A stretch of 64,000 bases of DNA from Cyanidioschyzon merolae (lineage: Eukaryota): the NCBI GenBank assembly GCA_000091205.1, contig AP006486.2; one strand, given 5' to 3'. Positions within the stretch are counted from its first letter, which is position 1; each line of letters starts with the position of its first letter. Below are positions 6,734 to 59,100 of this stretch, piece by piece. The translations under genes and the position numbers were made by a program. The notes beneath the pieces are model-generated. The model was not told where the DNA came from, made no database searches, and saw only the letters and a program-made list of their open reading frames with translations.

Positions 6734-8399
6734 AGCGGGAGTCGGTGAAGCGTTCAGGTTGAAGACAGCGGGGATTTCAAATTGAAGGAGAAAGGCCAAA
6801 CGGCTAGCAACATCGCGAACATCGATCACGAAAATGGACACGTGTCCGCGCGCATTGCACAGGATGCGCGTGATGTTTTTTCATGGACAAAACGATTCCA
6901 TAGGCCAGCGTTCTCCGATGATGCGCATTTTTCTTTTCTTACTTTTTTTGTGTATTTTTTTTCAGTGTGCGATGAGATATCCATCAAACCCCTACACTCA
7001 AGTTACATTACCCAGACTTTTTCTCGGATATTCTGGTCGTTTCATACGTCCTATCGTGTGTGCTTAGAGCCTGCAGTTCCGTATTCGCCTTTGCACCTTA
7101 ACCGCTGGAGCTGATAGTTCATAGAGCTAGAACGGCTTTTCTATACCACAGAGGGCGTCGGCTCGAGGCGTGCTTCACCCGACGTAGAATCGGGTCTCGT
7201 CGTCAGTTTGTGCTCGGACAGTCTGCAGGCGCAAACTTGCCTTCGCTGCACGACACGCTGGAGAAACTTCGCTGTTAGAATGAATCCTGGGAGCCGCCTC
7301 TCTCCTTCGTGATCATGCATGGAATGCGTTGTTGTCGGTTGGCAATGCGGGTTTGTGCTTGACGCTCACCACAGTGGATAGGCGCAGAAAGCGCACTGGG
7401 CCCGTGTGCGTATCCGATTCGCTGGACCTTTTGCATAGAAGGTAGCATGCGCGTGATGGGCGCTCCCTCGACTGCCGCCACCGTCGTCGCGTGTGCGATC
7501 TGGAATCAGCGCTGTGGACTGGCGCTCTAGGGTCGATGCAGTATGTCTGCCTGCTTGCCTGGCTGCCTGCCTGTTGAAGCACGGGTACGCATGCGATAAC
7601 GCTGCCACTAGGGCCGTGATACTCGTGCTCGTGCACAGCCTGTCTTTTTTTGCTATTCTTATGTACTGGAGTAGCGCCGAGGAGAACGCTTCGTGCCGCC
7701 GATCTCGGTGACAAGGTGCACTATAGGTGCTCGCGTGAAGCTGGGCAGGTTCGCGCACCGCAGCGGCGCCTCGCAGCAGGCACGAATAGAGACGATCACC
7801 AGCAGCTGATGACGTGATGGAACTCGAGTGCGTATGAGTTCCTTCGGCTGTCTTCGATAGGTTTTGCCGTCATCGGCAGCTATGTGGTCCGCGATGAAAG
7901 CAACTGTGCCGAGGAGTGCTGAGAACCCTGCGAGCGACAAAGCGCCCGCCAGCTCTTCACAAGCGGCGAACGAGCGGTCGAGCGAGCACGCCACAGACGA
8001 GGTTAGCTGGGTACGACGCCGCCAAGCCGACGTGGTCGAGGACGTTATGTACCGCGAGCGTATGACGCTTCGCGTGTGCGCGTTGGGTTTTGGTGCGTTC
8101 AGTAGAGTTCGTGGCGCACTGGTGATCCGCGATTGCCAGTATCAGAATAGACTGATAATTGGAACTTGTCAATCCGTTCCAGCCGCTTGATGTTTTATCG
8201 GAAATAGTTTACATGGACGGAACCGAGACTCGAAGCACAGCGATCGCGATAAGCGCCGAACGGTTCATTCATGTACACGGGATACTTTGTCGTTAGTCGG
8301 AATGGCTTGGTTGACACGTTGCCACCGGAGTAGTTTAGATCATCAGAACCAGATGATTCGGAACGCGCCCAAACAAAACTTCACAAAAGACCAATAATA

Positions 8400-16741: not shown

Positions 16742-18626
16742 TCCAGTTCTGGTTACTGTTGCGTCCCGAGCATACAGCTGCGGTAGGCCTTGGTCTTATC
16801 ACAGAATAATGGCAGCGGTTCGCTTGAGCAAGGCCCACCGTTTCCCGCTCCGTAAACAACGCGCCGGTAAACACTCAGGTATATAAACTGACGCAAGATG
16901 CGGCTTCCGCAACCCGAACTGGAAGCGCAGCACCTGCCCCAGCACTTTCTGCCCTTAAAAAGGTTTGCGTGGCCGTCTGGTGCGCTGCTGGGCAACCGCC
17001 AGTCCAAGGTAAGGGACAGTACAACAAAAACTCGCCCTTTGGACGACTCCACGAAGGTTCCCTGTACCTCCGTGTACTTGTGAATAACGTTCACTTCGAG
17101 CTGCAGCGCGAGCAACAGCTGCACCAGACCCCGCTATACCTTCAGCTGCCACTCTCAACAAAGAACACTCTCCCCAAAGCGTGTAGAAGCAAGCGAGCCT
17201 CAGCCTCTAACCCCAGAGAAGTAGTCAGCGCACTTGCAAACGTCGCCAGCACCACCACAGTAACTTTCAGAGCTTAACGACCAGCTTAGCGCGCGTACAA
17301 GTCTCTGTAGTCTCTGAAAGCACGGGCACCTGAAAGACCCTCGACAACCTCAAGGTATGCAGCTGGAATCGACGTGCTCCGGCCGCCGTTGCGACGCGCG
17401 CGCAGAACATGGACACGGATGCGCCATGTGCACGCATGTGCGCATTCCGGGACACGTCACCAGGCGCTCCGCTGCGTGCAGCACCTCAGCGGCATCGCTC
17501 AGGCGCACTGCATCGATGCGTGGATCCGAAGGCGCGTACACCGCGCACCGCCCGATGTTTTTTCCATTTGTGTATATATATTGACCGTCTCGAAAGCAGG
17601 GAGGACACATTCCACTTTTAGTCCCTCTACTCGTTTGTTTTCCACCTCAATCATGTGGTATCGAATGCTGTTTTGTAGTGTATAGAAGGCGATCGACAAC
17701 ACGATGCAATGTAGTGTATAGATCGAAGATGAATAACCTGTTGGATATGTATTCTTAACTGAAGAATGCAAGGAGCACTGCATTCCTCTTTTAGGTCAGT
17801 CATATCAAAGTACTCAGATGGTTGAGGTACACTGAGAGAAACAATCGTAGGCGCGACGCACCAGTAACCGATATTCTCGAAGACTGCTTGCGATGCATGG
17901 CAGAAAACGAACCGTGGATCACCTAGCGCAAAGCAAACGTTACGATAGTAGCAACTAGGTGTGTCTCTTTTTTCCAATAGCTAGTTCACTTGGTCCTGAG
18001 GACACTGGGATACAGTCGCAAAAAAATATTCTAGTTCACGCACAGCCATCTTCCACTGTAATCGAAATCCCCACAGCTTTCCGGGAACGTCGAGATCGAT
18101 ATGAAGCACAGGAGCGTCGACTTGTTTTCTATGCCGATGGGCCCTTTTTCCGGAAGAAACCGTCGGAGCGTATATGGGTATGCGCATAGAAGACGTCCGT
18201 GGTGTGTATGATCGAACTCAAAGAGAACGAGGATATCAACACCAGTTCTAGCTGCATTGGAGTCATTCTGCGGCCTCAGTTTCGCTCGCAGAGAAGGATC
18301 ATACGAAAGCAACCACTTTGCCGAATCATTGAAGACTTTTTTTCAAGACGTCTGGTGACTTTCTTCTTTTACGCAACGTGGTATTCCACCATTCTTCTCG
18401 CGTTCCTGCTTTTGAAGATTCTATCAGGATAGAGATGCTTTTCATTCCAGCGTTCTCTTCGTGGTCCAACATCATTGAAGGAGCATTTTCTATCCTGAGA
18501 AGTAATGATCGCTTCTCTAGGCGAGTCGCTGAATCTTTAAGCCCATTCGTATACCGGGACACGTTTGGTCTTTCTTGCGCAAGCACTTCTCCATCTGGGA
18601 AGCGCCTCACCTAAGGCCATAAAAAA

Positions 18627-18908
18627 GTGCGTTCATTTGCAGATATAAAAAATTTAAGCAATGAGCTGGGGTCTACACTTCAGAGCGTCAAGATGGAGAG
18701 AAGGCAGCGGATCATTGCGGCAACAGAAAAGCTCAGAGAGCTGACAGAGCCGGATTTGGCAATGAGGGCACGCATCCTAGCAGTCCCCACTATGCTGCGT
18801 TCAACCAGAGGCGATAAACGCATGAAATTCGTGAACCGAGACGTTAACGCCGCCATCAATTTCAGGAGATCTGCAGTGCTGAAGACGAGACCTGCGGAAA
18901 TTACGTGA
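18627..18908 (+). pseudogene. Degenerate TnpB/Fanzor-like (IS200/605 OrfB, RuvC-III region) ORF fragment in an AT-rich island
   Basis: C-terminal ...LRELTEPDLAMRARILAVPTMLRSTRGDKRMKFVNRDVNAAINFRRSAV matches the TnpB RuvC-III signature (L.YKA...V.P.YTS ... DRDvNAAiNI), but the CxxC...CxxC zinc ribbon is absent. Upstream frames show a possible RuvC-II-like FEDSIRIEM at about 18414. The local base composition is AT-richer than the flanking genes. Confidence 0.4.
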
Positions 18909-19349
18909 ATCAACTTTTTGGGACACCCTCTCAGATCCGAGGTGTGCAGGGAGAAACTGAAACCGATAGCAGGGGGCCTGTCGAAACAGACGGGGAGGCA
19001 TCTGTGATTGCATACTCATTTACCGTCCATAGATGTGAACCGTTGTTCGCTTCACTGGAACATAGTCCAGAACGCGGGCGAACACGTGAAAGTGCGCTGC
19101 CTCATCTAGTTGTCATGAACATGAGCGTCTGTGAGATTTCTCTGGACTGCTTCCTTCCCAGCTGGGTCATTTCCGGGACTGGATACGCTGGTGCTTCGTG
19201 TCCCGCCAGCTACGATGTCAGCGCTAGCGTGACGATTACGCAGTTCCCCGCAATTGCAGACGCATTTCGTTACCAGGCAGAGGTTGTGATCTATGCTTCG
19301 CTTCTCACTTTCGTCTACTTTGTAAAAAGCCTCAATGCGCCTTTCGCAA

Positions 19350-26588: not shown

Positions 26589-27987
26589 GTCAACGTGAAA
26601 AAGTATGGATCCACTTTGCTGACTCTTGCGTACGCTGTAATATCTGGGTATCTTGTCGTTGTTGTTACACCAACACCACTCATTTCACGATACGCCCCCT
26701 GGCTGCTCTTTTTTGCAGTCTTGGACAATCCGCTTCACATACGGGCGTATCTAGTGTCCATCCGGCGCCGTCGCAAGCAGTCGCAGAATGCTCCGATACA
26801 AACAAACGTCCCGATATGGGTGCTTCCTGCGTTAGCCAGCGCACCGGGTACGGACTGGCAGGAGTCGCAGTCTACGCTTCGCTTGCCGTGCTCATTCTCG
26901 TTGTATACAATATCAATGCGCTCGTCGCAGCGCAGACTGCGTGGGCTCTATCAGGTGTTTCTGTTTGCGTACTAGCGCGCTCCCTGAGACGATTGCCCTC
27001 TCGCGCTGCACAGCTTGCGTTATCGCTCGGTAGACGCACTGTGGGCAGGTACAGGAGACTCTTGGGGATACCGTTGACCGTCTCCTCGCCCGGGTACTCT
27101 GGCCTAGGGTCACGAGCGTCCGCTGTGCCATTCACTAGGCGAGGGCGTTGTACGCTGTCCGGTGCATGCGCAAGTGCACACTGTTGCATTCGAGAGTGGA
27201 TTTGCATCACGTGATGTTCCCCATGAGCACGAGACAAGTGCCGCAGGGACTAGTCAGTGTCGTGAACAATTCGAGAGGTGTCGATCCGTCGACGCTCGCT
27301 CTGTGCACCGCACGATCACACGCTCAGCTGGAAGTGATCGCTGCGATGCCTGCATTCCTGGTCCCTGGATCGTTCACGATACTTGAAGCAAAGACGGCAG
27401 ACGCGGGGCACGTATCGCACCCGAGGACGCATGCTGGTATGGAATGCCGTCTCGTCGATGGCCGCAGCCAAAGGCAGCATCGTGTCTCGAACGGCACTGA
27501 ATGCCTGGCGAAGCAAGATCAGCGAATGTGTCGCATGACCATGAGTGCACAAGTCGCCAACGGAAGACGTCGAGTACGGTTCGTGGTCCATCCAGAGACG
27601 CGATTTACCGCACCTGCGAGGCGCCACAGACCAGGAAGATCGAGGACTTGAAATATGAGCGATTTGGGCATGCCCTATGGATCGAGAGGAAAAACGCAGA
27701 TACTCGTGTGTATGCATTGGGTAAGGATCTCGGATACTTTACGAACCAGTGTCCGACGGCGTCGTGTATCATCTCGATTCCGTTCACGCACCGAATGCCA
27801 GCACCACAAGACTCGAAAGCGTCACGCTAACACAGACTACGACCGAGGATCCCGGAACCAGGTCTGAACCTGTGAGCACATCTCGGTGCACTTGGAATGT
27901 CCGTACAGTACGTCTTGACCTGGGTTCTGAATAGAATCGCAAGGCGCAAAAACACCCATCCGTCCAGTGTTCTGGTCTCATTTATGA
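26589..27987. repeat. Copy C1 of a 1,399-bp direct repeat (about 98.5% identical to 30976-32374), member of the dispersed repeat family
   Basis: Every six-frame ORF in 26468-27981 has a near-identical twin offset by +4387 (e.g. 26595..26975 vs 30928..31362, 27148..27651 vs 31553..32038). Repeat edges gtcaacgtgaaaaag ... ggtctcatttatga were read directly. It ends 4 bp before the GUF1 stop. Confidence 0.9.
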
Positions 27988-27991
27988 GGCA

Positions 27992-30313
27992 TTAGGAAGC
28001 GGCGTCACGTTTCGCCGTCAGAATCGCTCGAAACGCCTCCTTCGGCACGCGAATGCCGCTTGCGAGGGCTCGTTCCGCGGCGATTTTCTTTCCTCGTTTT
28101 TGTTTTTCGAGCAGTTTCTTCTTGCGTGTGACGTCGCCACCGTACAACTTGGCGGTCACGTCCTTCCGCAGCGCGTTCAGATGCTCGGAGGCAATGACCT
28201 TGGACCCAATACGCGCTTGGATGGCGACTTTGAACTGTTGACGCGGGACGATCTCCAAGAGTCGCTGACACAGACTCCGTCCAATCGCTTGTGCCGCTGA
28301 TTGATGACAGATGACGCTCATGGCGTCCACAACTTCACCGTGAATGGAGATGTCGAGCTTCACCAGGTCACTCGCTCGATACCCAACCAGGCGATAGTCG
28401 AGGCCAGCGAAGCCCTTGCTCCGCGACTTGAGCTGGTCGAAAAAGTCACTCACCATCTCCCCCAGGGCCATCTCGTAAATGAGCACCACCCGGGATTCGG
28501 TGAGGAAGCGCATGTCGAGGAACTCGCCACGACGGCTCTGGGCGAGCTCCATGAGCGATCCCACGTACTCTGCTGGTGTGATCATTTCGATACGCACATA
28601 GGGTTCCTCGATTCGTTCAATATTCGTCGGTGGCGGCAACTTGCACGGATTGTCGATCTCGAGGACCTCGCCGCTGGTCGTATGAACGCGGTAGACAACC
28701 GAAGGTGCCGTCGTCACAAGATCGAGGTCGTATTCTGTCTCGAGGCGCTCGATGACCACATCGAGATGGAGCAGGCCCAGAAAACCGCAACGGAAGCCAA
28801 AGCCCAGTGCCGGCGAGTTTTCGTTTTCATAGTAGAGCGCAGCGTCGTTGAGTTTCAGTTTTTCGAGAGCATCTCGTAACTGGTTATACATGCTTGCATC
28901 GGCGGGGAAGATACCGCTGAACACCATCGGCTTGACCTCTTTGTAGCCCGGAAGCGGTTCAGATGCAGGATGGCGTGCTAGGGTAATCGTGTCGCCAACG
29001 CGAGCGTGCGCTACGGTTTTGATGCCAGCCACCAGGTAGCCGACCTCGCCAACGGACAGCTCTTCGACAGGAAGCGGTTTCGGTGTGAAAACGCCAATTT
29101 CATCGACGTCGTATTCGCGGCCATTCGCCATAAAGCGAATACGATCCGACTTGCGTAAGGTACCGTCAACGATACGAAAGTAGACCACGACTCCGCGATA
29201 ATCGTCATAGGCGCTATCGAATATGAGCGCGCGGAGCGGGGCATTCTCGTCGCGGACTCGGGGTGGCGGAATCCGTTTCACGATTGCCTCCAGTGTCTCT
29301 TCGATGCCAATACCCAGTTTCGCCGAGGTCCGAACTGCATCGCGCATATCAATACCGATGACCTGCTCGACCTCCTGGGATGCCTGCTCTGGCTGCGCTG
29401 CCGGCAGATCTATTTTGTTCAGAATTGGGACGATCTCCAAATTGTTCTCCATCGCCAGGTACGCATTCGCGAGTGTCTGCGCCTCGACACCCTTGGTCGC
29501 ATCCACCAGCAGAAGTGCACCCTCGCACGCTTGCAGTGAACGAGAGACCTCATAGGAAAAATCCACATGGCCCGGTGTGTCGATCAGGTTCAGCACATAA
29601 GTCTGGCCGTCGTGTGCGGTATAGTTCATTCGCGCTGCCTGCAGCTTCACCGTAATCCCTCGCTCACGCTCCAGTTCCAGCGAGTCAAGGTATTGCTCTC
29701 GCATCTCACGCGCACTTACTGCGCCTGTTCGTTCGAGTAGCCGGTCCGCCAGGGTAGATTTGCCCGCGTCCACGTGAGCAGTAATAGAAAAGTTTCGAAT
29801 GCGCGACGGTGGTACCCGGATCAGGCGTCCCTGTGGCTGCGCGTGTTGTTCACCATCTGTTTGGAAGGGCGGCGTTGGTGCCACTGGCTTCGACGGTGTC
29901 TCACGTGTTGTGTTCTGTGGCAGCGACTGCTGAGCTCTCAGACTGAGAGCGCGTCCCGAGTCTCGCGCACACCTCTTCAAGTCTAGCGGGAGTCGAGCTC
30001 TATCTGCAAATGCTGCTGGTAACAGAGCGCACTGCCGCCAGTTCATATGGCGTCGAAACACGTTGTATAGCGTCGGACTCATGACGGCAAAGGCAAGTGC
30101 TGGTGCCTGCCAACGCCCCGAAAGCCGATCCCGCTCCGAGTTCGTAGGGAGCACGCCCGACCTACTGGTGCCAGTTCCGCTGCGCAGGCACTGCACACGC
30201 CCGGCACACGCCAAGGCGCGTGCCTCTGAAGGAAGCTGGCGCTCGGGGACTATACGCTGCGGTTCGTACGCACACTGGCCTCTACTTGGAACGCGTTCAG
30301 CATTGGTATGCAT
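27992..30313 (-). CDS. GUF1: Translation factor GUF1/LepA (EF4) homolog with N-terminal organelle-targeting extension of about 150 aa
   Basis: Complete LepA architecture: G1 [10 protein letters not shown]3 [13 protein letters not shown], and the LepA C-terminal domain ...[24 protein letters not shown] at 30313, alternative internal ATG at MSPTLYN. Confidence 0.9.
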
Positions 30314-30975: not shown

Positions 30976-32374
30976 GTCAACGTGAAAAAGTATGGATCCA
31001 CTTTGCTGTCTCTGGCGTACGCTGTAATATCTGGGTATCTTGTCGTTGTTGTTTCACCAACACCACTCATTTCACGATACGCCCCCTGGCTGCTCTTTTT
31101 TGCAGTCTTGGACAATCCGCTTCACATACGGGCATATCTAGTGTCTATCCGGCGCCGTCGCAAGCAGTCGCAGAATGCTCCGATACAAATAAACGTCCCG
31201 ATATGGGTGCTTCCTGCGTTAGCCAGCGCACCGGGTACGGACTGGCAGGAGTCGCAGTCTACGCTTCGCTTGCCGTGCTCATTCTCGTTGTATACAATAT
31301 CAATGCGCTCGTCGCAGCGCGGACTGCGTGGGCTCTATCAGGTGTTTCTGTTTGCGTACTAGCGCGCTCCCTGAGACGATTGCCCTCTCGCGCTGCACAG
31401 CTTGCGTTATCGCTCGGTAGACGCACTGTGGGCAGGTACAGGAGACTCTTGGGGATACCGTTGACCGTCTCTTCGCCCGGGTGCTCTGGCCTAGGGTCAC
31501 GAGCGTCCGCTGTGCCATTCACTAGGCGAGGACGCTGTACGCTGTCCGGTGCATGCGCAAGTGCACACTGTTGCATTCGAGAGTGGATTTGCATCACGTG
31601 ATGTTCCCCATGAGCACGAGACAAGTGCCGCAGGGACTAGTCAGTGTCGTGAACAATTCGAGAGGTGTCGATCCGTCGACGCTCGCTCTGTGCACCGCAC
31701 GATCACACGCTCAGCTGGAAGTGATCGCTGCGCTGCCTGCATTCCTGGTCCCTGGATCGTTCTCGATGCTTGAAGCAAAGACGGCAGACGCGGGACACGT
31801 ATCGCACCCGAGAACGCATGCTGGTATGGAATGTCGTCTCGTCGATGGCCGCAGACCAAGGCAGCATCGTGTCTCGAACGGCACTGAATGCCTGGCGAAG
31901 CATGATCAGCGAATGTGTCGCATGACCATGAGTGCACAAGTCGCCAACGGAAGACGTCGAGTACGGTTCGTGGTCCATCCAGAGACGCGATTTACCGCAC
32001 CTGCGAGGCGCCACAGACCAGGAAGATCGAGGACTTGAAATATGAGCGATTTGGGCATGCCCTATGGATCGAGAGGAAAAACGCAGATACTCGTGTGTAT
32101 GCATTGGGTAAGGATCTCGGATACTTTACGAACCAGTGTCCGAGGGCGTCGTGTATCATCTCGATTCCGTTCACGCACCGAATGCCAGCACCACAAGACT
32201 CGAAAGCGTCACGCTAACACAGACTACGACCGAGGATCCCGGAACCAGGTCTGAACCTGTGAGCACATCTCGGTGCACTCGCAATGTCCGTACAGTACGT
32301 CTTGACCTGGGTTCTGAATAGAATCGCAAGGAACAAAAACACCCATCCGTCCAGTGTTCTGGTCTCATTTATGA
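30976..32374. repeat. Copy C2 of the 1,399-bp direct repeat
   Basis: Identical edges and colinear sequence with 26589-27987; about 20 substitutions over 1.4 kb. Confidence 0.9.
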
Positions 32375-33791
32375 AGAGTCTATCTCAGCCGATGAGCGCA
32401 TTGTCACCCACAAGCAAGGCCCAGTGCCCGAATTCGCATTCGCTTGGCGTTATCCGATGAAGCGTCTGTCACGAGAGCAAAGCGGTGCGCACGCGCGGTG
32501 ATCCATTCACTGAACAGCATTTCGAGTGAACGCTTTGCCAGGCGTTCACGAGTGATCAGTGAATACGTCGCAGGCGCAGCGCTGCATTCCGAACAGCGCC
32601 AGTGAACGAGCTTCTCTGTGCACGATCCGAGCGCCTCGCAACAGAGGGGGCCGGCATCCCACCCAGCTCTCTACTGGAGAGCACCCAGACACCTGCTGGA
32701 GAGCGTCGAATGTTCGTACGGCCCAGTCGCTAGTCGCTATCGTGCTTATGCTGCACGGCGATCAAGGTGCGCATCGCGACACTTGAAATATCGCGTTGCA
32801 GAACATCGTCCCCGCTGTCCAGAAGCATACGGTTTATGAAAAAATCGAGCGTAAATTGGAGCAAGTGGCCTGCCTCAGGAGCCTCGGATTCGATGATGCA
32901 CTGTGCGCGAGGGAGCGTCTCGAATGCTTGTTGTCATAAAGCGCCTGCATGGGCATTTCCGTGCCTGCGTACCGCACTCAATAGCATGCTGCTGGGCGTA
33001 CTTGTACAAGTACCATTCCACTTGACCTGTGATCACACAGAAGCCTACGCATAGTCGACGGAACAAGCACTGAGGCTTGAAGCAACCATGAGGTTTGCTG
33101 GGATGCCCCCAGGATCGCCCACGTTGCGAGGCGCGTGCCTGCAGCCCCAGTCGTGTGAGCATCCATGCCCTGCGTGCTTGCGTATCCATCTTTGGGTTGC
33201 CTGCTATCAACCGACGCGCCAAGATGCATTCCAGCGCCGTTGTCATGTCAGCGTTCGCCGTCCGCAACTGCGTAGTCGACGGGCCAACAAGCGCCTGCGG
33301 CAGGCTCTGCATCCGCGGATTCGCTGTACCAATCTCAGCGCTATGCAGCGGGAAGAGATTCGATCGCGCCGCGTAGAACGTGAACGTCTGCGCGGCAGCA
33401 TTCAAATCCATGGTATTGACCGTGGCAGCCTTCGGACATCCGCAGAGACGCTCATTACACACATGGACCAGCACGCACCCATCCACCCGCAACCGCACGC
33501 ATGCATCCGACGCCTCGAGCCGATACCCTCAGGGGCATGGCATCGACGAGGTTGTGCTTTCGTGCTGCGCGTGCAGCGGCGACTCACAAACGCTATCGTG
33601 GACACGCATAGGATACACCTGGCAAACGATAGAACGTGACAAATGATCAGCAGCTTCCAAGACCCATGCGCACAGAGGACTATGGCCATACGTTGAACAA
33701 TGGATGTTCGATCGCGCGCTCCGACGAAGCGCATCAGCGAGGATCCCCGGTCATTGGGGCAGGGAGCCGCAAAACATGAGCTGCATTCCAG

Positions 33792-34517
33792 ATGTCCTTC
33801 TTATACAGATTGATCTACTATTGTTGCATAGCGGTCGATTGCTCGAATGCTCCCCGCACCCCTTCGCATGCTGCCTCTGCTACTCGTACGCAAGCGCGCT
33901 GCTTCTCCGACACGTGCGCTAGCCGAACTGGAGACGCCACAGTTCTCCGGGAAAGGAGCAAGCTCGCCACCATGTCTGGCCTGCGGACTTTAGTCGCGCT
34001 TCTTAATCAGCGCGTACGGCCGTTTGTCTTACCGAATGCACACGTTAGTCCGTCGGCGTCCGTGATAGGAAACGTCGCTATTGCGGACCACGTTTTTATC
34101 AAACCAAACGCTGTGCTCCGAGGTGACAGTCTTGTTCCTGACGACTTGATTCGCCTCGGTGGGTATACGGTCATTGGTGAAAATACAGTTCTGAACGCTG
34201 CCGTACAGATAGGATCCTGGTGTCGAGTCGGAGCGGCGTGCTCCATCGGACGCGCCGCACGCATCGGCAACGTGGTCACGCTTGGGGACGGTACCATAGT
34301 GGGCGCTGGTGCGGAAATCCCGCACGAAGTATGCACCGAGCCACGTACAGTTATACCAGACGGAGCGCAACTCGAGCCAAACGCCCGATATGCCGGGAAT
34401 CCAGCAACGCGTGTCGGTGAGTGGTCCGGTTTTGATGTCGAGGAGAGCAAGAAACGAGCGCAAGCCGAGTGTGCACTTGGTGCGCAACATGCGTACGAGT
34501 TCCTGCCTTTGGAATGA
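33792..34517 (+). CDS. Gamma-carbonic-anhydrase-like (left-handed beta-helix, hexapeptide repeat) protein, probably mitochondrial complex-I-associated CA/CAL type
   Basis: PNAHVSPSASVIGNVAIADHVFIKPNAVLRGD...IGENTVLNAAVQIGSWCRVGAACSIG..ARIGNVVTLGDGTIVGAGAEI matches gamma-CA hexapeptide repeats. Few conserved His ligands, so -like. ATG at 33792; alternative ATG at 33972. Confidence 0.65.
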   Translation: MSFLYRLIYYCCIAVDCSNAPRTPSHAASATRTQARCFSDTCASRTGDATVLRERSKLATMSGLRTLVALLNQRVRPFVLPNAHVSPSASVIGNVAIADHVFIKPNAVLRGDSLVPDDLIRLGGYTVIGENTVLNAAVQIGSWCRVGAACSIGRAARIGNVVTLGDGTIVGAGAEIPHEVCTEPRTVIPDGAQLEPNARYAGNPATRVGEWSGFDVEESKKRAQAECALGAQHAYEFLPLE

Positions 34518-35419
34518 GCGACGGCAGGTTGGCTTGGCGTGCCCCGACGTGTCTCCTCGACAAGCATGCATGAAGGAGATGACGCACGACGTTCACGAAG
34601 GCATCGGTTTTTTTCTTGTTCCGAAGGGTTGCCCGTGCGGTGCTTGTGCCTGAACAGCTACTGCTACAGGAGCCGCGTTGATTTCATGGCATCTGAGCAT
34701 TGGTTCATAGCGTGCTGCAGATGAGCAGATCAGGTGGCATCCTCGGTGAACTCGACGAGACACGGCAAGGCGACTTGGAGACAGCGCCTCTGGATCTGGG
34801 TACTGCGCGCCCTCATGCTGCTTTGCGAGCAGTGTACGAAGACACTCGACTGTGATGTACTCATGAGTCGTAGCAGACCCGTATGCAGTGCTCGCTGTCC
34901 GGGTGGCTGCAACTTAGTTGGAGGCACAGCTCTCTGCCCGATACCGACGAAAAGCGCCCGTGCGACCTGGTTAGCACAGAGAGATCGGGGCACGGCTCTT
35001 GACGGGAAACCGGGCAACGAATCGAAAACCTTTGATGATTCCATAGCGGTTTGGTTTCACAGCGACATCGAACCGGGACGGGGCATGAGCGTTGCGCAAG
35101 GCGCCACGAACGCTGGTGTTACCCCCGGAGTGCTACGTAAAAGCCTCCCGACAGCTGCATTGGTTGATTCTCTGGAATGGCGAGCCAAGGCTCTCTATGA
35201 TCGTTTGTTAATTGCCCTGGGAAACCTTTCCCAGTGTATATATATGGATTGAAGAACTGTACCATGCCAGTGTCATGTTCGAGACGGGACTGCAATGCCC
35301 TGTGTCTTGGCCACTGATTACCGCATTGCAAGTCTGCAGCGTTTCAGCATAATGCCCGCACTGAGTACAACACCACTTCCGTCGACAGCGCACGCTGTAG
35401 AAATCGTATGGACGCTCCC

Positions 35420-35700
35420 GATGCACAGGATATTTCCGGATGTTGATCGAGGCGTCCCAATCTGGATGCAGGAACTGCTTACACGCGTATTTGCCGATAG
35501 ACTTATACTGTGGAACGTATCTCAACGTCGATAGCCTCGCTATTAGAGGTTCGATAAACTTGCCATACTCGATTTCACGCGTCCGGCGATGTTGCACGTT
35601 CGTCGTGTCTACGAGGTTAGCGTTGCACCCGTGCTCGTGTTCGGTTAAGATCGCCCTGAATCCATCAAAGCGAAACGTGCAGCATCGGTTCCCGGACTAT
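35420..35700 (-). pseudogene. Second degenerate TnpB/Fanzor-like C-terminal fragment (RuvC-III region)
   Basis: Minus-strand frame reads ...REIEYGKFIEPLIARLSTLRYVPQYKSIGKYACKQFLHPDWDASINIRKYPV (cf. TnpB LEYKA.WYGK.V.KV.P.YTSQ.C..CG...C..CG..DRDvNAAiNI). Only one Cys remains of the zinc ribbon. In-frame stop upstream at 35697-35699; the listed ORF start is GTG. Confidence 0.4.
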
Positions 35701-38700
35701 GGTATGCGCACGTCGAAGGAGCTGGAGCGCAGCCTTTACACGTTGCAGCACGTCCGCCACTGTACGCTACCATTACACCAAGGTATCGTATCAATCAAGT
35801 TGTATGCATCTCATTCAGAATTCGGTGAATGCACGCGCTTTGTCTCGGCATAACGGAAACCGTTAGCGAGCCCAGCGCACTCTCATGTAGGTATGCCAAT
35901 GAGCATTTGCGTACGCCACTGGGACCATCATGCATTCTTTCTACACGAAGCGTACAAAGCATCGCTCTTCGGGTGATGCGGTGCACTGAGGCTCGACCTG
36001 CGTTCTCATTCTGGTATTCCACTCGCTGAACTGCCTCTAGACGCCCATGATGTCCGACGCCATCGCATACCAAAGCCTGAAATATTCGAGCAGCCTCGTA
36101 TGCGTTCCGTACAGATCTTCGGTTCCATCGTCTTTTCTAGGAGGTACGGCGACGGACATGGCGACCTTCAGCCCGGGATGCACAGCCGACCCCGAGTCCT
36201 TCTCTTCATCAGCGTCAAATGCTTGAGAATGAGTCCCGTTGGTCAACTGAGGCAAACGATTCACACAGTGCATTCAGAATGATGCTGTGTCGGTCTGCAT
36301 CGTCCCAGTGAGTGCCGTACCAGTATGCCCCTGTAGACAATGAGACTTGAGCCAGCATCGCCAATGCTGTCTGCGAGCGAGTTCGTCTGCTTCATAGCGC
36401 TGCACGCGGACACTAGCAGTGCCTCATTGAGAAGGTCGTACTGCACGCTACACGAGAGAACGCCCAGATGCCCTGAGTTTTGACGTGACCTGTGCGGACC
36501 ACATCGACTAGAAACTGAAGTACACTCGCGTACGCCGAGGGACGCTATTTTGCGCTTGAGCGCTCTGTACAGGATAATCTGGTGGTGCACGATACAACGA
36601 GGGTGTGCATCGAGCTCAGACCATGATTCGGATGGTACGTCCGTCGGTCCGAAACCCACAGCCGCACGATGAGCTCGGATGATCCGAAGCGACACTCGCT
36701 CTCATGGCGACAGCGCTTCCTAACTCGCTTCCATCTCGAGCGCTCTTCGCCGCCACGAACTCGGCATTTGAATCCATCGAGACCTACCCAGAATACCGTC
36801 CATAAATCCCCACGTTTCCGGCTCAACGGGATGAGGCCTCAACGCCCACACGGTGCACGTCATGAAGCGCTCGCGACGGACCCGCATATGGTACTTGAGT
36901 TTGGTTTGATAGGTTTTCGCACCTACCCTGGAGACGTTGTCTTCGATGGCCGACGTGGCGCTGCCAGGCGAGATGATCTCCTGGAACGGGGGTGTGCGAA
37001 TCTCGGATCCCACGTAGAGGCCGTCATCCATCTTCTTTCCCGAGCACCAGATGCGTTTTCATGCGACGGTTGAATGTAGAGAATTCATGGGGGATGTGCA
37101 TCGCTAAGTGCACTGCGTCCGGAACGCCTGTCGAGGACTTGCTTGCCGGGTTGCATCAAGTTGAGCGAAGCAAGCAAGTCGTCCCTCGAGCGATAAGCTG
37201 CAGGGCATCCACGACGACGTGCAACTTACTATGTAGACGATCTTCACCCTTGATTTGTTTTGCTTCACGGCCTTTAGAGCGGTTATAGTCGGGCTCTGTC
37301 GCCGAGATGGTTTGTAATTCCTGTTCTTGCACGTCTTCTCTTGGGTAGGATCTTTCTTTTTCTTGTCCGACGCGGTATTTTGCGTCTCGATGACCCAGCG
37401 GGATAGCGTAGAGGTGGTCGCTATATGCGGTATCCGCCTCTTCATGCGGACTCAGGCGCACTGGATTGCTTTTGGCCCCGAAACCCGTATTTCCTATGTA
37501 TGCATCTACGATTCCCAAACAACTTTTTCTCACCCTTTTCCGAGGCGAGTTTACCGACGAACCGGAGCGGGCCTATCCGCTCACTCCTGCGTACGAGCAG
37601 AGACGCAACGCAGCATTTCCAGGCTAGTGAAGTTGAATTACGATTTGTCGTGGAAGGGTTCCACGATGCCGCACGACTCCCTTTCTAATCCACGAGTCTA
37701 AACGTGGCGTTTCACGTTGAGAAGACGCTTCCAACTGCATTAAACCAGGTAGCACGTGCACCCATGAAGAGCAGAACAACACCTACTGCGGCTACGTGTT
37801 CCTTTACCGCTTCACAGGTGCGGACAGCGACGTGGCCCCAGGGCAAGACTTGCGAATGTGGTACAGAGACGGGATCAGGAATGCCTCGACGGAGGATGCT
37901 GTTTTGAAAGATCATGCCCGTTAGACAAGTGGTAAGCAACCAAGCCAAAGCACCTCCGGTACGGCTTGTGATGTCGAAATGCTGGACTGTCTCTGCTTTA
38001 TAAACAGCGGTTTGCCCCTGTTGAAGCACCCATATGCAGGCGTGCCGAGTCGCCAGAATACATTCTCTCATCGAGCGGATCAAACACACCTCATTCCTGT
38101 CGTCATCGTCCGTCATTCAGATCGAACTCGATCCTGGGTTGCTCAGCGCTCGACGGCCTCTCATTCAAGTGCAAGTTTTCATTCGTCCAAAGGTGTCCGT
38201 TTATCGCCGGTCGTGTAAACTGCACGAACGTTTCACGTTTTCTGGCTGCTTCGGCAGCGTTTCTCAGATACAGTATGGAGCAAAATGAATGAAAGAAGAG
38301 AGGATGGTGCAGATAGCCTATGATTAGTTTTGCTAAGAGTGCACAACGTTCCGGATCAGGACAACGAGAACGTGGGTTTACGCACCTCCTGCACGAAGAA
38401 AGACTGACCTGTACCGGTGAACGCGCCATGCCAACATCGAGTCTTGCACCGACGCTGCTCCGCGATACAGGACGCATGTCCTACTTTGAATACGTTCGAG
38501 AAAGACAAACAGAACCAAAAAGGATGTGTTCGTACAGGTGTGTGAGAAATACCTGATCTGAGTATAAAGCTGCTCTCGTCGATCCTGAAAACGCCTAGTA
38601 CTGGCATAGCCAAACAGACCCAAGCGGCATCGAGACGCTGCTCGAACACTCATACCGGTACAGGCATCGCCGGGAAACCCGGTCACAGGTGGCAGAACGG

Positions 38701-39769: not shown

Positions 39770-41020
39770 TCATAGATGATGCCCGAGTTTGCCCTCTGTT
39801 TCATGGTCCCATACATCGCTGCTTGAAGACTTGAGAACGGCGCCCTGAAATGCGGCCATGGCAGAAGGTGTTGGTGCCACAAATCGACCCGGCAACTGCA
39901 AACGATGCTGTAAGTACGCAGGCAGCTCGAGCTCAGCTGCGTGAAGCATCATTCGGGAAAAGCGCTCGTCCTCGTCGGGCAACGTCGGATAGGTCGCGTC
40001 CCCGACGATGCCGTGACCTACACACCAAAGATGAACCCGCAGCTGATGCCGCCGTCCCGTTACAGGACGCAACTCGAGCAGCGAAGCAGGCAAACCCTGA
40101 TAGCTTCCGATCCCCAGTACTGTGCCCAGCGTCAGTGCACTAAAGATCTTTTTCGTCGTGGCGGTTGGTGCTGGCTGTAGTTGTCGACATGGTCGCAGCT
40201 TTACGGCATCTGCATGGCGTCTGTCGCCGTCGCACTCGGGAACAGCGCAATACGAGTCGGTTACCCGGCTTTCCGCAAAGCCGCGAATGCCGGTGCTGCT
40301 CTTGCGTGAGACAGAGCCAGCACGGCAGGCACACCCGGGGTCTATTTTGATTTCGCCAGTATCCGAACTGTTCCTGGAATCCTCGGTACTTGCATGAGCC
40401 GTATGATCGTCGACCGTAGCCAGACGCACCCGAAAATCGTCCGCATACTCTACAAGTGGAGCATCTATCCAGAAGTGTGCGTTTGCATCACCAGGCACCA
40501 CATGTCCGTGAACAATTGCAAGATATCGTTTCCGAATCTCGCGTTTCCGAAAGGCGGCTGTGATCTGAGCCGTCGCTCTTCGCTGTAAACCAAGGAGCAG
40601 CACCCCAGATGTAGCATAGTCGAGTTGGTGGATCATGCGAATTTTCGGGGGCGGCAGCGGCGCGCGAAGGTGCCCGACCCGGTGCCAACCGGTCGGTTGG
40701 ACCCGCTCCGCGAGCGCTGAACCCCGTTCACTGATCTGTTTCTGAGCAAGCGACTCGACCGTGGACGTGAACGCTGCGCCACTCATTCGCATGTCGGCCG
40801 GTTTGTCGACCACAAGCAAGTGCTCCGACGCGTACACCACAGGCAGACGAGTGCAGGAGCTTGGCGCCCGCCCTCGAGCCGTGGAACCGTGCGGAAGCGG
40901 CTCATCGAGTGCAGAAGCGCGCGGTTGGAGCACCTCAGAAGTGCCACCGTGAAAGTACGGCATAGTGCCGGTCGCTCCGTGCAACCGCTGGTGCAGCGGT
41001 GCAACGACAACGAACCCCAT
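39770..41020 (-). CDS. RluA-family RNA pseudouridine synthase
   Basis: Motifs VVYASEHLLVVDKPADM and catalytic HQLDYATSGVLLLG (HRLD..TSG). The ORF-track start at 41065 is GTG; the first ATG is at 41020. Confidence 0.75.
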   Translation of the reverse strand: MGFVVVAPLHQRLHGATGTMPYFHGGTSEVLQPRASALDEPLPHGSTARGRAPSSCTRLPVVYASEHLLVVDKPADMRMSGAAFTSTVESLAQKQISERGSALAERVQPTGWHRVGHLRAPLPPPKIRMIHQLDYATSGVLLLGLQRRATAQITAAFRKREIRKRYLAIVHGHVVPGDANAHFWIDAPLVEYADDFRVRLATVDDHTAHASTEDSRNSSDTGEIKIDPGCACRAGSVSRKSSTGIRGFAESRVTDSYCAVPECDGDRRHADAVKLRPCRQLQPAPTATTKKIFSALTLGTVLGIGSYQGLPASLLELRPVTGRRHQLRVHLWCVGHGIVGDATYPTLPDEDERFSRMMLHAAELELPAYLQHRLQLPGRFVAPTPSAMAAFQGAVLKSSSSDVWDHETEGKLGHHL

Positions 41021-42800
41021 GAGGTTTGGTTTCGCGTTCGCCGAGTAGGTGCCGGTGCTTTGCACGAGAAAACGTTTGGGTAGTGCAAAAATGTTTATTT
41101 ATGTGCGTTTATGGAATCGAGCGACATAGGCGATAGTGTGATGCCTCGCCTCACGTTTTGCTCCATGACACGTTTGATGGTTCCAATCAGTTACCCGCGG
41201 AAGCATACCACGCGCTCATTAACCAGGATGGAGAGCTTCGTTCATCTATTGATAATATGCAATATGAACTAACAGTTGGCCACGCGGTCTGCGCGCTCCG
41301 TAGCCACCGGATCGGGGAAAGTCGTGCGATTTCTGGATGCGGTACGGAGGCTTCATAGGGATCGACTCTTTCGTGCGGGTGTTCGTGGATGTTCGCTTGT
41401 TTTGGTGTCGATGCACTTGCGAAACGCGAGTGACTTGCAGACCGGAGCTGCGGTATACTGTCCCGGACACACACACACACCTTACAATGGTGATCGGGGG
41501 CAGCACTTCTCTATCGGGAATCATGGCTTGATCAGGGCAACGGTCGAGGAGACGCAGCATTTCGTATGTCGGTGAGTGCGCCAAAAGCGCCTCGTTCTTT
41601 GCATCTGGGGTTCTGTACTGGACGATACGGTTATCATGGGAGAGTGCTCCTTGTTATCGCTCGCATCATACCCGAGGTGCTCATAGACATCCCGAGACCG
41701 TCTGTATCGTTTGCGTTGTTCCTGATGACGCAGCGAGAGACACATATCAGATGCGTCAGGATTTCAGTGGACGGTTTTTTTATCGCTCACGACTGGTTTC
41801 ATGGAGATGCATCACCGCAAATATCGATACACCAGAACGCGTTCCAATGCTGTAAGCGTGCGCGGTGGACGCAGTATTCGGCAGACCGCCGGATCCATCG
41901 AGTCACGAGTTCGAGCAAGGAACACTGCTTCGGGGCAGGTTGAACTCGAAAGCCTTCGTAAAAAGATGATACTGAAAAGCTTTTCCAAGCAGCATCCTCT
42001 GATCCAGAGGCATCTGTTGAGATCGATCCATGCCGTACGCTAAGAATCCCCACGAAAATGCGATTGTAGTGCGAACCAACACCCTTGCACGCTGATTCCC
42101 ACTCGCTCTTCTTTCCTCGACGAGGGACCCCTTTCCGACGCCATACAAGCGGCGCTGCCGCTTGTATGGTCATCTGCTACCGTTGCAATGTGTCCGCAGT
42201 TGGCAGGAGAGCATCATGCACATGCATCATGGACTTTCTGAACCTATTGCGGCCGAGCCTGTATACGCGCAGTAACATATTCTGCGCTCTGTCTATGGTT
42301 CTATCCGGGTTTAGAAAGCATTTCCAAGTAGAGTGCCTCGACTGAAGCACCTTTTTCTCAACTGAAAACTTGCTCGGGTAGATACTCGGTTCCTGCAGTA
42401 GAATAGATACTCAAGTTCAGGTCCCGAATATCTACCGGAAAGCGCGCTCAACAAGAACTAGGAGCGAACTTTTCCACCGTCAGACAGGACGGGATTTGCA
42501 ATCGAAATCATACATTATTCCGAATTACAGAGAATCCGGGTCCCGCCTCCTCAGCAACTTCAAAAACACACCCCGAATCCGCCCTCACCAGGCACGAAGC
42601 TACGCACCCGAGGCGGGCCTCCACCGTCGGGCTCCGCGGTACTGCCGGCGTTCGCTGGGCATCGCGTGTGTTGCGCGGGAAATGGGATTTGCGCGGGAAA
42701 ACGCATCGCCTCGCTTTGCCGCTGCGTGCTGCCTGCGCGATGCGTGCGCTACAGGCGTAACGTGCTTGTTTTCGTTTATCGCACAAGTGCAGTGTTCGTG

Positions 42801-46704: not shown

Positions 46705-47917
46705 CAGCAGCTACTGCACAACAACATCCACCGCCACCTTTCGTCGAGGAGCAAGCACCAGCCGGTGAGGCTGTGCAGCGGTTACACACCGCAGCAACGC
46801 GCTACGGCCTCAACATGCATCCAAATGAGTCAAACGTGACAAAACAACGGGAACTAGTCACTGATGTGTTGCACCTGTACCGGCAGACGCGATACGGACC
46901 CGTCACTAGCAACCCGATAACAGTGTCGTTGCAGCTTCATGGAAAGCATCGCAAGCGGGGGAAAGGTTTCCGTACTCTGGAACGTTTACTTTCTAGGTGG
47001 ACGGTTCCGCGAGCGGGACTAGACTGCCAGGTCTGGTGCTTCTTGCTCGGCCCAGTGTGGCGGGTGCTTTCGTGAGATCTGAACAGCTCGTCCACAACGC
47101 AGTTTATTCTGGGACTAGGGGCCGGTTATTTGCATCCGGGTGTCGTCCTGGTTGCGGTGGTCTCCGAGCATATCGCTTCGCCTAGTCGCCGGCATTCGGT
47201 TTGTTTGCGCAGCGTACCGGCCCGCACGGCGTGATCATGTAGCCCGCGGACCCTCTATCAAGGGAAGCATTCCTCGTGCCGACCCACCGCCAGTTATATG
47301 ACAAGGCCGTTCCGCGTACGTGCTGCATCCGCACCGGCGGTCTAGGCGCTATGGCGGGTGCAGCAAGGCAAGCACTCGGCATACGCTAGAACGTACGAAC
47401 ACGACCAGTGCATCCGAGAGGAAGAAGACGTGATGGAACTTTGAGGTAGAGTGCATCGTCATGGACGCTTTTCCGAGTGCCAGTATGCATTCCGCAATCC
47501 GGAGTCTATGCTCAATGTAAATATTTTGTCAAACAGACAGAAAAACACACCCGGCAACGTTGAATGCCCCGCCCAGCGCCGGTGTGCGCCCCGTGCGGGA
47601 CCCGTAAGCGCCATGTGCACTGGATGAGCGCTTTGGTCTCATCGTTGAAATGATCTGGATGTTGTTGGACGTTCGATGGTTGCCATCAAGACGAGAAGAG
47701 AGCGAGTCTGCTCCAAATAGCACCCCGTTTCCCAGCGCTCAAGAACAGACGTCCGGTCGGGAACAGGGATGCGTTCAGTCGACTTCGTACATTCGAGTTT
47801 TCCGTACGCGCCGGATGCACTGCACGAGTTCCCCTACGATACAGAACACTGAGTCCGTGCTTGAATCATCAACTGAATGAAGATGTAACGAATGAGCACT
47901 GCACAGTAGCGGCGCTA

Positions 47918-48175
47918 TCATTCAATCAATCATTCACTCAATGTTTCTTTCTTTCATGCAATCATCCATTCAATCACTCATGCTTTCTTTGACTCATTCA
48001 CTCAATGTTTCTTTCTTTCATGCAATCATCCATTCAATCATTCACGCTTTCTTTCTTTCACTCATTCAATTACTCAATCTTTCCTTCTTTTCATCCAATC
48101 ATCCATTCAATTATTCACGCTTTCTTTCTTTCACTCATTCAATCACTCAATCTTTCTTTCTTTCTTTCAAAATGG
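47918..48175. repeat. Minisatellite, about 64-bp unit, about 4 copies
   Basis: Direct reading shows the unit atgtttctttctttcatgcaatcatccattcaatca(c/t)tca(t/c)gctttctttg/tctttcactcattca tandemly repeated with small variations. Confidence 0.8.
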
Positions 48176-56113: not shown

Positions 56114-59100
56114 CAAGGCGACAGCGGCGCAGTAGGCGTGTGCGCACACAGGTTGCCATGCGAACCCCCGGGGGCGAACTGCATCACTGTCGCGAGAATT
56201 GACCGCAAATTGCGATTCCGTTTCGCGGGTCATTGAGCCGGGAAAGGGAGCCTCGATATCCCCGATGATCAGCTGTGGTTAGGTATGGATCGCACGTGGT
56301 GCTACGTCACGGATGACGCGTCTGGTCTTTCGTAGCGCAAAAGGGCACAGCATCCTCGTTCGGGTGAATGCCGCGTTGGTATTGCTGTATTCCAGCCCGT
56401 GGAAGTTGCGGATTGCGTTCGTTCGTGGATGGAGGCGGTGTACTCGTTCGCGATGCTCATGGTCGATGTTCGTCGGTGAGAGAGAGAGTTGAGATCAGCG
56501 TTTCACCAGCGTCTTGCATGGCGTGCAGCAACGCCACATGCCCCGAGCGTTTGCTCGAAGAAGAAGAATAGCCGTTCTTTGCGTATATACGCACTGGGTA
56601 AACGAGCGAGCAGATGCATGATTTCTGGTCCAGTGGTAATCACTTGAACCCGCTCGCGCCCGGCAGCGGAGTCGAGGCTCGTAAGCGCCACTGCGCCCTG
56701 CTCTCGTTTGCGTGCCTCATTTCATGCGAGTCCAGGTGCGGCTTTTTGGTGCCTGTGAATGCGGCGACCTCGGTGATAGACACTGGTGTATGCTGGGCGT
56801 TCCTTGACGCAATCTGTGTCAGCGGAGCGTCGTAGAAGGTATCGAGCATAGAACCTGCCTCCGAAAGTTAAAACTCATTTGATTTTTCATCCCGAATTCG
56901 TGATGAGAATCATATGAGCGCGTGACACAGCGTATGGAGTCACCAAGTGCGTCTAACCGGGGGAACGGTGACGCAAGTCAAATATCCGAGTCCAAGTTGA
57001 GCCGTATGCCTTCCGAAACCTTTTTCGGTTTGATTTCAGACCCAGGCAAGAGCGAACGATCACGCGCCAAAGAATGAAAGCGCACCAGCGTGGTTCTGTG
57101 GGCTCTTTGACGGGAATAGATGCCTCCAAAGTCGCCACTGCCGTCGCTGAAGCATAGCGTCGCGTTATAGACTGGGCACGGGACTGCGTAACGTCCAGGT
57201 TTTAGGGCTCGTAGCAGGTATTTCCAAGCCTGGCCGGATCGAACATTCCTAAGTAAACCGCACCATATCAAGAAAAAGAGATCGTCCTGATGACAAGCGG
57301 CATATCCAGCTTTGATCGAGCTCAGCTCCACATGTCGAATCATGGAATGCCATGATTGCTCTTCATTATCCACAGAGCATCGTTCCCAGTGCGAACAGGC
57401 TGCGCTCCATGCATCTGGACTGCTGAACCCGAACATACCGATACTTCGAACCAGGCGCCACGCGAATGCCCATTGCATTGACCACTGATGTTTCATAGCG
57501 GATGTCTACAGCAATTCAGTACAATGCCAATGAAGCGTACGAAACAAGTCCCTGGAGAGCTCGCTCGACGCCGTGCGATCAGGCGCTGTGGAGACATTCC
57601 ATATTTCTGGATGCTGATCGAGGCACTACTACCTCGATGCAGCAAGTGCTTGCGCACTCGGTTGCTCGTGGAATCACACCACAGAAGCCGTCCGACTTTC
57701 CATTGCCTGGCCAGCTGGGGTTTCGGCACCTTCCCGTCCAGCATCTCGTGCGACTAGCTCTGATGAAGGCACATCTTCTGTGACTGGTACACCGGGTACC
57801 GATATTCCCCGTGCGTCAATGGCTTTCTGTACGCATCGGAGGCAATCGTACGGAATCTATTCCGTCACACACACACACACACCTCAATGGAACGCTCTGA
57901 CCTACAGGCAGGAGTGCTGCCTCTGCACCGCACAACACATCCAGTGCTGTACGCTACGGCACAATGACACGAACGCTCGGTCACTTGCTTTCGCTACTCA
58001 TGGACGCAGCTGGTGAACGCTCACTCCTTGCCTCCGTCCAACAGAAAAGAGACCGTTGCCGAGCCCGACGCAGTCGTATGTCCCCCGGCTCGAAAAATCG
58101 TCTGCATGAGGAATGAACGCTTCTGCACAGTCCCTGAATGGAGCGTACGAAGCATCCGCCGCTGCTCGATACGGTGCTCAGGGCGTCGAGACGGGCCCAG
58201 ACACAGTCATGCTGCTGGCTCGTTTGCATGCTGGCGAGCATTCGGAACCCCGGCGCAGGTGAAAAGCATCATGTGCTTGCACGACTCTCCCGAGGAAAGT
58301 GCACCTAAACACTGCGTCGGTCGCCGCTGTCCCTGGAGAGCTCTCCCCGTGTACCCCTATTCATCGAGATACGAGGAGCAAGGCCCGCCAATGCATTTCG
58401 TAAAGCAGCTCGAATGCTGCACACGTGCTCCCAGAGACTAGCAGTAGACCTCTCGCAGCGCAGTGCATCCAGTAGCCAAGTATCTGTGGGCACGGAATGG
58501 GCCCTGCAGCGACGCCCCGGGAGCGCCGCCAACAGCTGCCGTTGGGGGCTAGCGCACTCGAACTCCGGGCATCCATCTGCGCTGGGCTGGGGAGCGCGCT
58601 TCAGGAAAGCGTCGTCGCGTGAGCTACGGGCAAGGAACGCAAGCATCCCATTCCAACCGTGTTACGGGCATGACGTTCGTGGATCCGAGGCCGCGAGCCG
58701 CACCAAGCGCTTCATCGATCCGAAGCGACACTCGCTCCGATCCCGACGTTTCTTCTGAGGGTTTTCTCTACGAGCTCGGGCTCTTCCGCCGCCAGCAGCG
58801 AGTCACTCGCTTTCATCGACATTGCGAGAATCGCCTGCACCAGCTCCGACTTTCCTGGTCCGTTATGCTCGGGATGATCATGCCCACAGGTTGTGCTTCT
58901 TAGAGGACTGGTCATTGGTGAGCGTATGCTTTTGCGGTGTTTTTCTGAGGATCATTGGACGCTTCTCGGCACATCCGTCGTAGACGTTTTCTTCGATCGC
59001 CGATGTGGTGCTGCGACGCCAGGGGGCACTCTGAGCAGCGAAAATGCAAATCCCTGATCCCACGATCAGTGCGTATTGCATCTCCTGCCCGTGCATCAAC

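Follow-up and report, generated by a model that had tools for sequence, protein, structure and literature searches.

The DNA analysed here is a 64-kb stretch of the Cyanidioschyzon merolae 10D genome, hereafter the window, in which the host genes, namely MCM2, LepA/GUF1, ubiquilin, a 1446-aa kinase, a Bax inhibitor, a gamma-CA-like gene and an RluA-type pseudouridine synthase, are single ORFs. Three proteins encoded in it are identical to the C. merolae 10D entries BAM79109, BAM79113 and BAM79114. The gamma-CA-like and RluA-type genes are convergent, and the intergenic region between them holds the element described below, which fills most of it (Table 1). The minus strand of 35400–35700 reads ...REIEYGKFIEPLIARLSTLRYVPQYKSIGKYACKQFLHPDWDASINIRKYPV..., and this computed translation matched exactly the one quoted in the original prediction, which had placed a short TnpB-like relic here. 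The open frame around the 129-aa residual ORF comprises 162 codons and extends to 35696, where it is closed by a TAG, as had been claimed for an in-frame stop just upstream. The interval from 34.5 to 39.8 kb had also been described as having no recognisable host gene, which was borne out, since the 60 open-frame pieces in it gave no Pfam family except for one spurious match (E = 0.004), and tRNA and Rfam scans, which were empty over the whole window, gave no match there.

Table 1. Coordinates of the features detected in the 64-kb window of C. merolae.
Feature	Coordinates	Strand	Details
Gamma-CA-like gene	33792–34517	+	one flank of the gene-free region
RluA-type pseudouridine synthase gene	39770–41065	−	other flank of the gene-free region
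Whole decayed CMe-1-like (Fanzor1-bearing) transposon copy, at least 3.2 kb	35177–38366	−	nhmmer paralogues; ends approximate
Fanzor1 CDS remnant	35355–36938	−	~aa 168–697 of a ~700-aa protein; frames −3, −2, −1, −3
CDS segment	36938–36537	−	frame −3; 2 in-frame stops
CDS segment	36405–35818	−	frame −2; 4 in-frame stops
CDS segment	35776–35696	−	frame −1; 0 in-frame stops
CDS segment	35690–35355	−	frame −3; 0 in-frame stops
HSP, CMe-1 aa 343–550	36405–35818	−	tblastn
HSP, CMe-1 aa 565–589	35776–35702	−	tblastn
HSP, CMe-1 aa 595–692	35687–35400	−	tblastn
Degenerate RuvC-I, AVHPGLKV	36163–36186	−	vs CMe-1 GADPGNTN (tblastn); family consensus G.DPG..N
Degenerate RuvC-II alternative Glu and TS motif, FDGFRAILT	35643–35669	−	family consensus VDEFR[TS][TS].T; tblastn and hhalign
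Degenerate RuvC-III, DWDASINI	35439–35462	−	family consensus [NS]RD.N[AG]A.NI; tblastn and hhalign
Residual ORF, 129 aa, GTG start	35208–35597	−	contains the sequence quoted in the original prediction
In-frame TAG, upstream end of open frame	35697–35699	−	polymorphic; TCG (Ser) in the L002 strain
18.8-kb relic, CMe-1 aa 611–726	18660–19004	+	tblastn, 50% identity, E = 4e-26
Old Fanzor1 copy, paralogue of the 35-kb element	57332–59791	−	nhmmer; tblastn with P0098, E = 1e-18
Old Fanzor1 copy, paralogue of the 35-kb element	9667–10953	−	nhmmer; tblastn with P0098, E = 4e-5
Internally deleted CMe-1A-like copy, adjoining the 57-kb copy	59853–60279	−	consensus 872–1068 joined to 2810–3079
TE-N2_CMe-like piece (CMe-1A 5′ ~630 bp)	46890–47531	−	nhmmer, E = 4e-103
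TE-N2_CMe-like piece (CMe-1A 5′ ~630 bp)	6886–7445	+	nhmmer, E = 2e-39
TE-N2_CMe-like piece (CMe-1A 5′ ~630 bp)	33510–33655	−	nhmmer, E = 3e-7

Searches with the residual ORF itself returned few matches. Pfam gave nothing at E ≤ 10 for either the 129-aa ORF or the 162-aa frame, a result that is uninformative because the intact relatives described below are missed by Pfam as well. A PDB sequence search with the ORF gave noise only (TatD, rubredoxin and similar), and the sole match in a word-indexed protein search was a strain variant (P0001) with 96% identity. When 1.84 billion proteins were searched exhaustively by phmmer, the only match besides the strain variant was a distant relative of 97 aa (P0004; E = 5.6e-4, 35% identity), which is a Fanzor1 relic too and reads ...ACKQFPRRDLNAMINICRFLEVRARPADL, with its sequence visibly bridging the 35-kb relic (ACKQFLHPDWDASINIRKYPVHRERPYDF) and a further fragment at 18.8 kb (KRMKFVNRDVNAAINFRRSAVLKTRPAEIT).

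A Fanzor1 transposon family of C. merolae, CMe-1A, was described by Bao and Jurka in 2013 (Mobile DNA 4:12; PMC3627910). They reported ~150 copies, which individually share ~80% identity with a consensus of 3169 bp, and a Fanzor1 protein, CMe-1, of 734 aa; some of the copies were reported as intact. The element has no TIRs and could not be classified by these authors, and its 5′ 635 bp correspond to a second repeat, TE-N2_CMe (PMC3627910). The CMe-1 protein and the CMe-1A DNA consensus were taken from the supplementary files of that paper. When compared with the window by tblastn, CMe-1 gave three collinear minus-strand HSPs in three frames at the 35-kb locus, with a summed E of 5e-24, together with weaker matches at 60112–59912 and 58032–57604. 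At the DNA level, nhmmer matched positions 1401–2972 of the CMe-1A consensus to 36923–35409 (E = 1.3e-18, 54% identity, 1433 aligned columns), and consensus positions 1–1400 had no nhmmer match in the 35-kb copy. As controls, 50 shuffled CMe-1 queries scored at most 30 bits, with a minimum E of 0.014, and the reversed CMe-1A DNA consensus gave no nhmmer match in the window at E ≤ 10.

A family search with CMe-1 returned 43 proteins, among them the full-length relatives P0058 (71% identity), P0097 and P0098 (42–43%), and P0099 and P0100 (31–33%). PF26935.1 is listed in the database as the precomputed assignment for many of the CMe-1 relatives. Used as tblastn queries against the window, P0097 recovered the relic at E = 2.3e-23, and P0098 added the segment 36938–36537 (aa 168–303; E = 2.9e-9). 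A profile–profile comparison, proposed as a check in the original prediction, was made by hhalign between the 162-aa frame and the Cyanidiales Fanzor1 family profile (a 12-sequence alignment, A1) and gave a probability of 95% and an E of 3.8e-8 over the last ~95 columns. Homology to CMe-1 at the protein, DNA and profile levels upholds the earlier reading of the locus as the relic of a TnpB/Fanzor-family gene.

The coding remnant, running from 36938 to 35355, contains at least three frameshifts and at least six in-frame stops, with no continuous ORF of 600–750 aa. In RuvC-I, the catalytic Asp is replaced by His (DPG to HPG), with the PG being kept. In the Glu/TS motif, where CMe-1 VDEFRTSYTHHELGC aligns to FDGFRAILTEHEHGC of the relic (35625–35669), the Glu is replaced by Gly (DEF to DGF) and the TS by AI, the alternative Glu before [TS][TS] being the Fanzor 'Ealt' defined in PMC10711439. 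RuvC-III is recognisable but degenerate (NRD to HPD, giving HPDWDASINI; in context, VNRDFNAAINIRRC in the family vs LHPDWDASINIRKY in the relic), with the catalytic Asp and the A/S.NI part kept, the Arg changed to Pro and the Asn changed to Asp. To judge from these substitutions, the copy has lost two of its three catalytic carboxylates, and the description of the locus as a dead fragment agrees with these losses and with the frameshifts and stops. The reading as a live gene with introns was also rejected, because C. merolae genes in this window consist of single ORFs and because the relic shifts frame and contains stops.

The motif assignments made earlier from the short translation were only partly retained. 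DWDASINI had been taken for RuvC-III, and it does align to NRDFNAAINI of CMe-1; EYGK, however, is not the equivalent of LEYKA but aligns to DIEKYG within a variable segment, and YVPQYKS, thought to correspond to V.P.YTSQ, aligns to LLALVSTTS in the Cys-poor stretch that takes the place of the Zn finger, with the true Glu/TS motif lying upstream of its earlier placement. A six-frame search of the 64-kb window for the pattern D.[DN]A[AS].N[IF] found it at two sites only, 18840 (+) and 35462 (−), and it appeared in none of 150 Markov-1 simulated windows, which supports the argument that the motif combination is unlikely to occur at two loci by chance. The full regular expression suggested for this purpose ([VI].P...) matched nowhere, its own locus included, which it misses because V and P are adjacent there.

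Substantially more DNA than the flagged interval belongs to the element. An nhmmer search with the 35-kb region, which covered the rest of the window and the fetched loci, matched the whole of a 2.8-kb contig carrying P0004 (L007, 2–2826) to 38366–35283 (E = 1e-128), and the two old copies within the window, 57332–59791 (−) and 9667–10953 (−), to 35177–38172 and 35339–37596, respectively. The N-terminal ~167 codons and the 5′ region (36939–38366) were recognised through these paralogues only and not through CMe-1. The identity of the 35-kb element to its paralogues is a uniform 55–60% along its length, and such a level among old copies indicates that they are ancient; a global MAFFT alignment of the four old copies with the consensus gave pairwise identities of 38–56%, which was too noisy for a subfamily consensus. 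The original prediction, which gave the relic as 35420–35700, was correct in that this is a real Fanzor remnant but not in its extent of ~280 bp, as other frames carry the homology upstream as far as 36938, and the DNA matches reach 38366. By these alignments, the flagged 280 bp correspond to the C-terminal end (RuvC-II to RuvC-III) of a much larger decayed copy.

The relationship of this copy to CMe-1A is one of family rather than of close kinship. It resembles CMe-1A/CMe-1 in lying in the same genome, in belonging to the same protein family and in its collinear homology over aa 168–697, and the family of the relic and CMe-1 have in common DPG, DEFRTS, a Cys-poor segment of ~60 aa, NRD.NAAINI and a ...RP.EL tail, with no TIRs. 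It differs from CMe-1A in its lower identity to the consensus (only ~54% for DNA and 29–32% for protein, against ~80% reported for typical copies), in a 5′ region without a match to the 5′ part of CMe-1A (TE-N2_CMe), and in its frameshifts and stops. By the ~80% identity and the TE-N2_CMe 5′ end of CMe-1A sensu Bao and Jurka, the 35-kb copy falls outside CMe-1A proper, and its low DNA and protein identity to the consensus therefore marks it as either older or of a different subfamily. It probably forms an older CMe-1 subfamily together with the copies at 57.3–59.8 kb and 9.7–10.95 kb of the window and that of L007. The flagged DNA in any case belongs to a transposon family that had already been published for the same genome, and the relic itself is not novel.

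The Pfam TnpB models gave no match to the relic at E ≤ 10 and matched the intact P0058 only at E = 0.23 (PF07282). As Pfam misses both the relic and its intact relatives, the evidence for a TnpB connection comes from the fold search, from the motifs and from the 2013 paper. The intact relative P0097 was modelled by AlphaFold2 (AF2) from alignment A1, giving a model of only moderate quality, with a mean pLDDT of 61; the N-terminal/REC region and the RuvC core scored moderately to well, and the last ~110 residues were below 50. When this model was compared with the PDB by Foldseek, the top seven matches were all Fanzor1 (E = 3.4e-13 to 8.4e-10, probability 1.00, TM ~0.45–0.6), led by SpuFz 9cez (E = 3.4e-13) and followed by 8gkh, GtFz 9cer and PpFz 9cf0/9cf1, and Cas12f/TnpB-like folds were not significant. 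By prediction, the family has the REC/WED/RuvC/NUC fold of Fanzor1, as judged on the intact P0097 and not on the dead copy. P0097 is like the solved Fanzor1 proteins (SpuFz1 8GKH/9CEZ, GtFz1 9CER and PpFz 9CF0) in its overall fold, the DPG of RuvC-I, the alternative Glu of RuvC-II beside TS, and the RD of RuvC-III. With prokaryotic TnpB (IS200/IS605, ISDra2; PF07282/PF01385), the family of the relic shares the ancestral RuvC D-E-D and the C-terminal RD.NAA.NI, but it differs in having DPG in place of D-hydrophobic-G, a rearranged Glu, no Zn ribbon, no TnpA partner and a eukaryotic host.

Overall, the flagged DNA almost certainly represents the C-terminal end of an ancient CMe-1-family transposon copy that encoded Fanzor1 and has since been inactivated. 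Its active ancestor would have encoded a TnpB-like protein of ~700 aa and, by analogy with characterised Fanzor1 (PMC10432273, PMC10530073), this protein may have been an RNA-guided RuvC DNA endonuclease that took its guide RNA from the element's own 3′ end. This copy was inserted between the two convergent host genes and afterwards decayed neutrally: its frame was broken up, two of its three catalytic carboxylates were lost, and it drifted to ~54% DNA identity to the CMe-1A consensus. It is now without function.

Contigs ~99% identical to the window were found in several JGI/ENA metagenomes (L001–L004), and the insertion is at the same place in all strains, which indicates that it is old and fixed. 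A 121-aa version of the ORF (P0001) is called as a gene in strain contigs and the frame is open for 129–162 codons, as might be expected if a domesticated or still-expressed small protein of 129 aa had been kept for a host function. The variation among these strains argues against this, as the SNPs in the open frame, though few (10 variable sites), are mostly non-synonymous, with two synonymous changes, six non-synonymous changes, one new stop (at 35647, premature, in one strain) and one loss of the upstream stop (at 35698), and the start and stop positions vary. SNP density is likewise at or above the intergenic level, with ~39 differences per 3190 bp (1.2%) over the element at 35177–38366, compared with 0% in the gamma-CA-like gene, 0.7% in RluA and 0.3% in MCM2, all in three strain contigs. 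In addition, the catalytic residues have been lost, and no homologue other than TE relics was found among the 1.84 billion proteins. The strain variants follow a neutral substitution pattern, with only 10 variable sites in the open frame, and retention for a host function is considered very unlikely; the 129-aa ORF has stayed open by accident within a dead element.

It is equally improbable that the locus is a 'ghost' guide-RNA locus, with a dead protein but a 3′ end from which an omega-RNA would still be made and would serve intact Fanzor1 copies in trans. Stand-alone ghost loci are known for Fanzor in Spizellomyces punctatus (PMC10432273), intact family members have been reported in C. merolae (PMC3627910), and the minus strand contains a perfect hairpin of 8 bp, CTGGGAAAGGTTTCCCAG, close to the 3′ end (~35215–35232). 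This hairpin is not conserved in the 57.3-kb paralogue, however, and the 3′ segment is no better conserved than the remainder, the identity to the paralogues being uniform; with Rfam also giving no match, there was no sign of a retained RNA function in hairpin conservation, Rfam or segment identity.

A relic of another TnpB lineage, whether a prokaryotic IS200/IS605 TnpB, an IS607-type Fanzor2 or a viral integration, would share RD.NA.NI, which is common to all TnpB-like proteins. This origin is extremely improbable, as proteins and DNA of the CMe-1 family gave the best matches and the only significant ones, the motif remnants are Fanzor-like (HPG as a decayed form of the family DPG, and the Glu in the alternative position beside TS), the intact relative folds like Fanzor1 without significant similarity to Cas12f/TnpB-like folds, and no TnpA or serine recombinase remnant was found nearby. 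Even though the ORF has no relevant match in Pfam or, by sequence, in the PDB, and two of the four original motif matches were spurious, a chance resemblance in non-coding DNA without TnpB/Fanzor ancestry has practically no probability against collinear protein homology over ~530 codons in the expected order, E values of 1.3e-18 for DNA and 3.8e-8 by hhalign, negative shuffled and reversed controls, and a motif absent from all simulated windows.

The decayed CMe-1-family copy is accompanied by others, with at least five Fanzor1-derived loci in the 64-kb window (Table 1). The two loci named originally, at 18.8 and 35 kb, are both real, but the number was too low. Similarly, the suggestion that the genome once hosted such an element was confirmed as to the family but understated, CMe-1A having been published in 2013 with ~150 copies, some reported intact (PMC3627910). 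The 18.8-kb locus (18656–19005, +) is a 3′ fragment of CMe-1A, matching consensus positions 2732–3084 with ~70% DNA identity and one stop, and a word-indexed search with it returned two relic ORFs only, one of them mislabelled 'TIM8'. In the metagenome contigs L005/L006, a CMe-1-type 3′ relic (P0003) bears the source label 'import inner membrane translocase subunit TIM8', which is evidently an annotation error that arose from a spliced gene call. Just upstream of the 18.8-kb relic, in the same frame, lies a DDE_3 (Tc1/IS630-type) transposase remnant (18333–18611, +; PF13358, E = 3.5e-6), which suggests a nested insertion or a chimeric element.

Other repeats were also observed in the window. 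A 1399-bp direct repeat (26589–27987 and 30976–32374, 98.2% identical) flanks the LepA/GUF1 gene (27992–30313, −), has ORFs without a Pfam match and is also present in strain contigs. Short tandem-like duplications with ~64-bp and ~57-bp offsets and 87–89% identity were found by self-comparison at 47930–48163 and 1470–1635, respectively.

The analysis of the family further revealed a missing Zn finger. In the family alignment, CxxC...CxxC between RuvC-II and RuvC-III is absent in the relic, in P0058, in P0097–P0100 and in the CMe-1 consensus, with P0099 having zero Cys in the segment between the TS motif and RD, and where the finger would lie, the full-length ORFs, which appear to be intact, have a stretch of ~35–60 aa with few Cys. 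These Zn-finger-less full-length relatives maintain DPG, [DP]EFR[TS][TS] and [NS]RD.N[AG]A.NI. Since CxxC...CxxC is absent in all intact relatives, its absence is a lineage trait and was not caused by decay. The possibility raised earlier, that the element lacked a Zn ribbon, thus holds as to the absence, but the absence is lineage-wide and does not reflect a deletion in the 35-kb copy; a loss of the ribbon through a 13-aa deletion does not fit, as the spacer from the TS motif to RD is ~60 aa in the relic, the same as in intact relatives. The Cyanidiales lineage, comprising C. merolae CMe-1, the hot-spring metagenome proteins P0058, P0097 and P0098 and the more distant P0099 and P0100, differs in this from SpuFz1 and ISDra2 TnpB, which have a CCCC finger in common (PMC10432273), and the window copy differs further in being dead. 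The Zn finger forms part of the published Fanzor definitions (PMC3627910; PMC10711439), and no mention of its absence across the Cyanidiales Fanzor1 lineage was found in a literature search that was not exhaustive.

C. merolae is often described as nearly transposon-free. This 64-kb window alone nevertheless contains at least five Fanzor1-derived fragments and three TE-N2_CMe-like pieces, several of them too diverged for DNA-level masking, and most of the ~5-kb stretch taken to be gene-free (at least 3.2 kb) is a transposon carcass. The annotation value of the relic is modest, as the family, on record since 2013, has many such decayed copies. The lineage-wide absence of the Zn finger might matter for engineering or classifying Fanzor/TnpB nucleases, and, if the proteins are still active RNA-guided nucleases, the lineage could tentatively be considered a source of natural zinc-finger-less Fanzors from a thermoacidophile.
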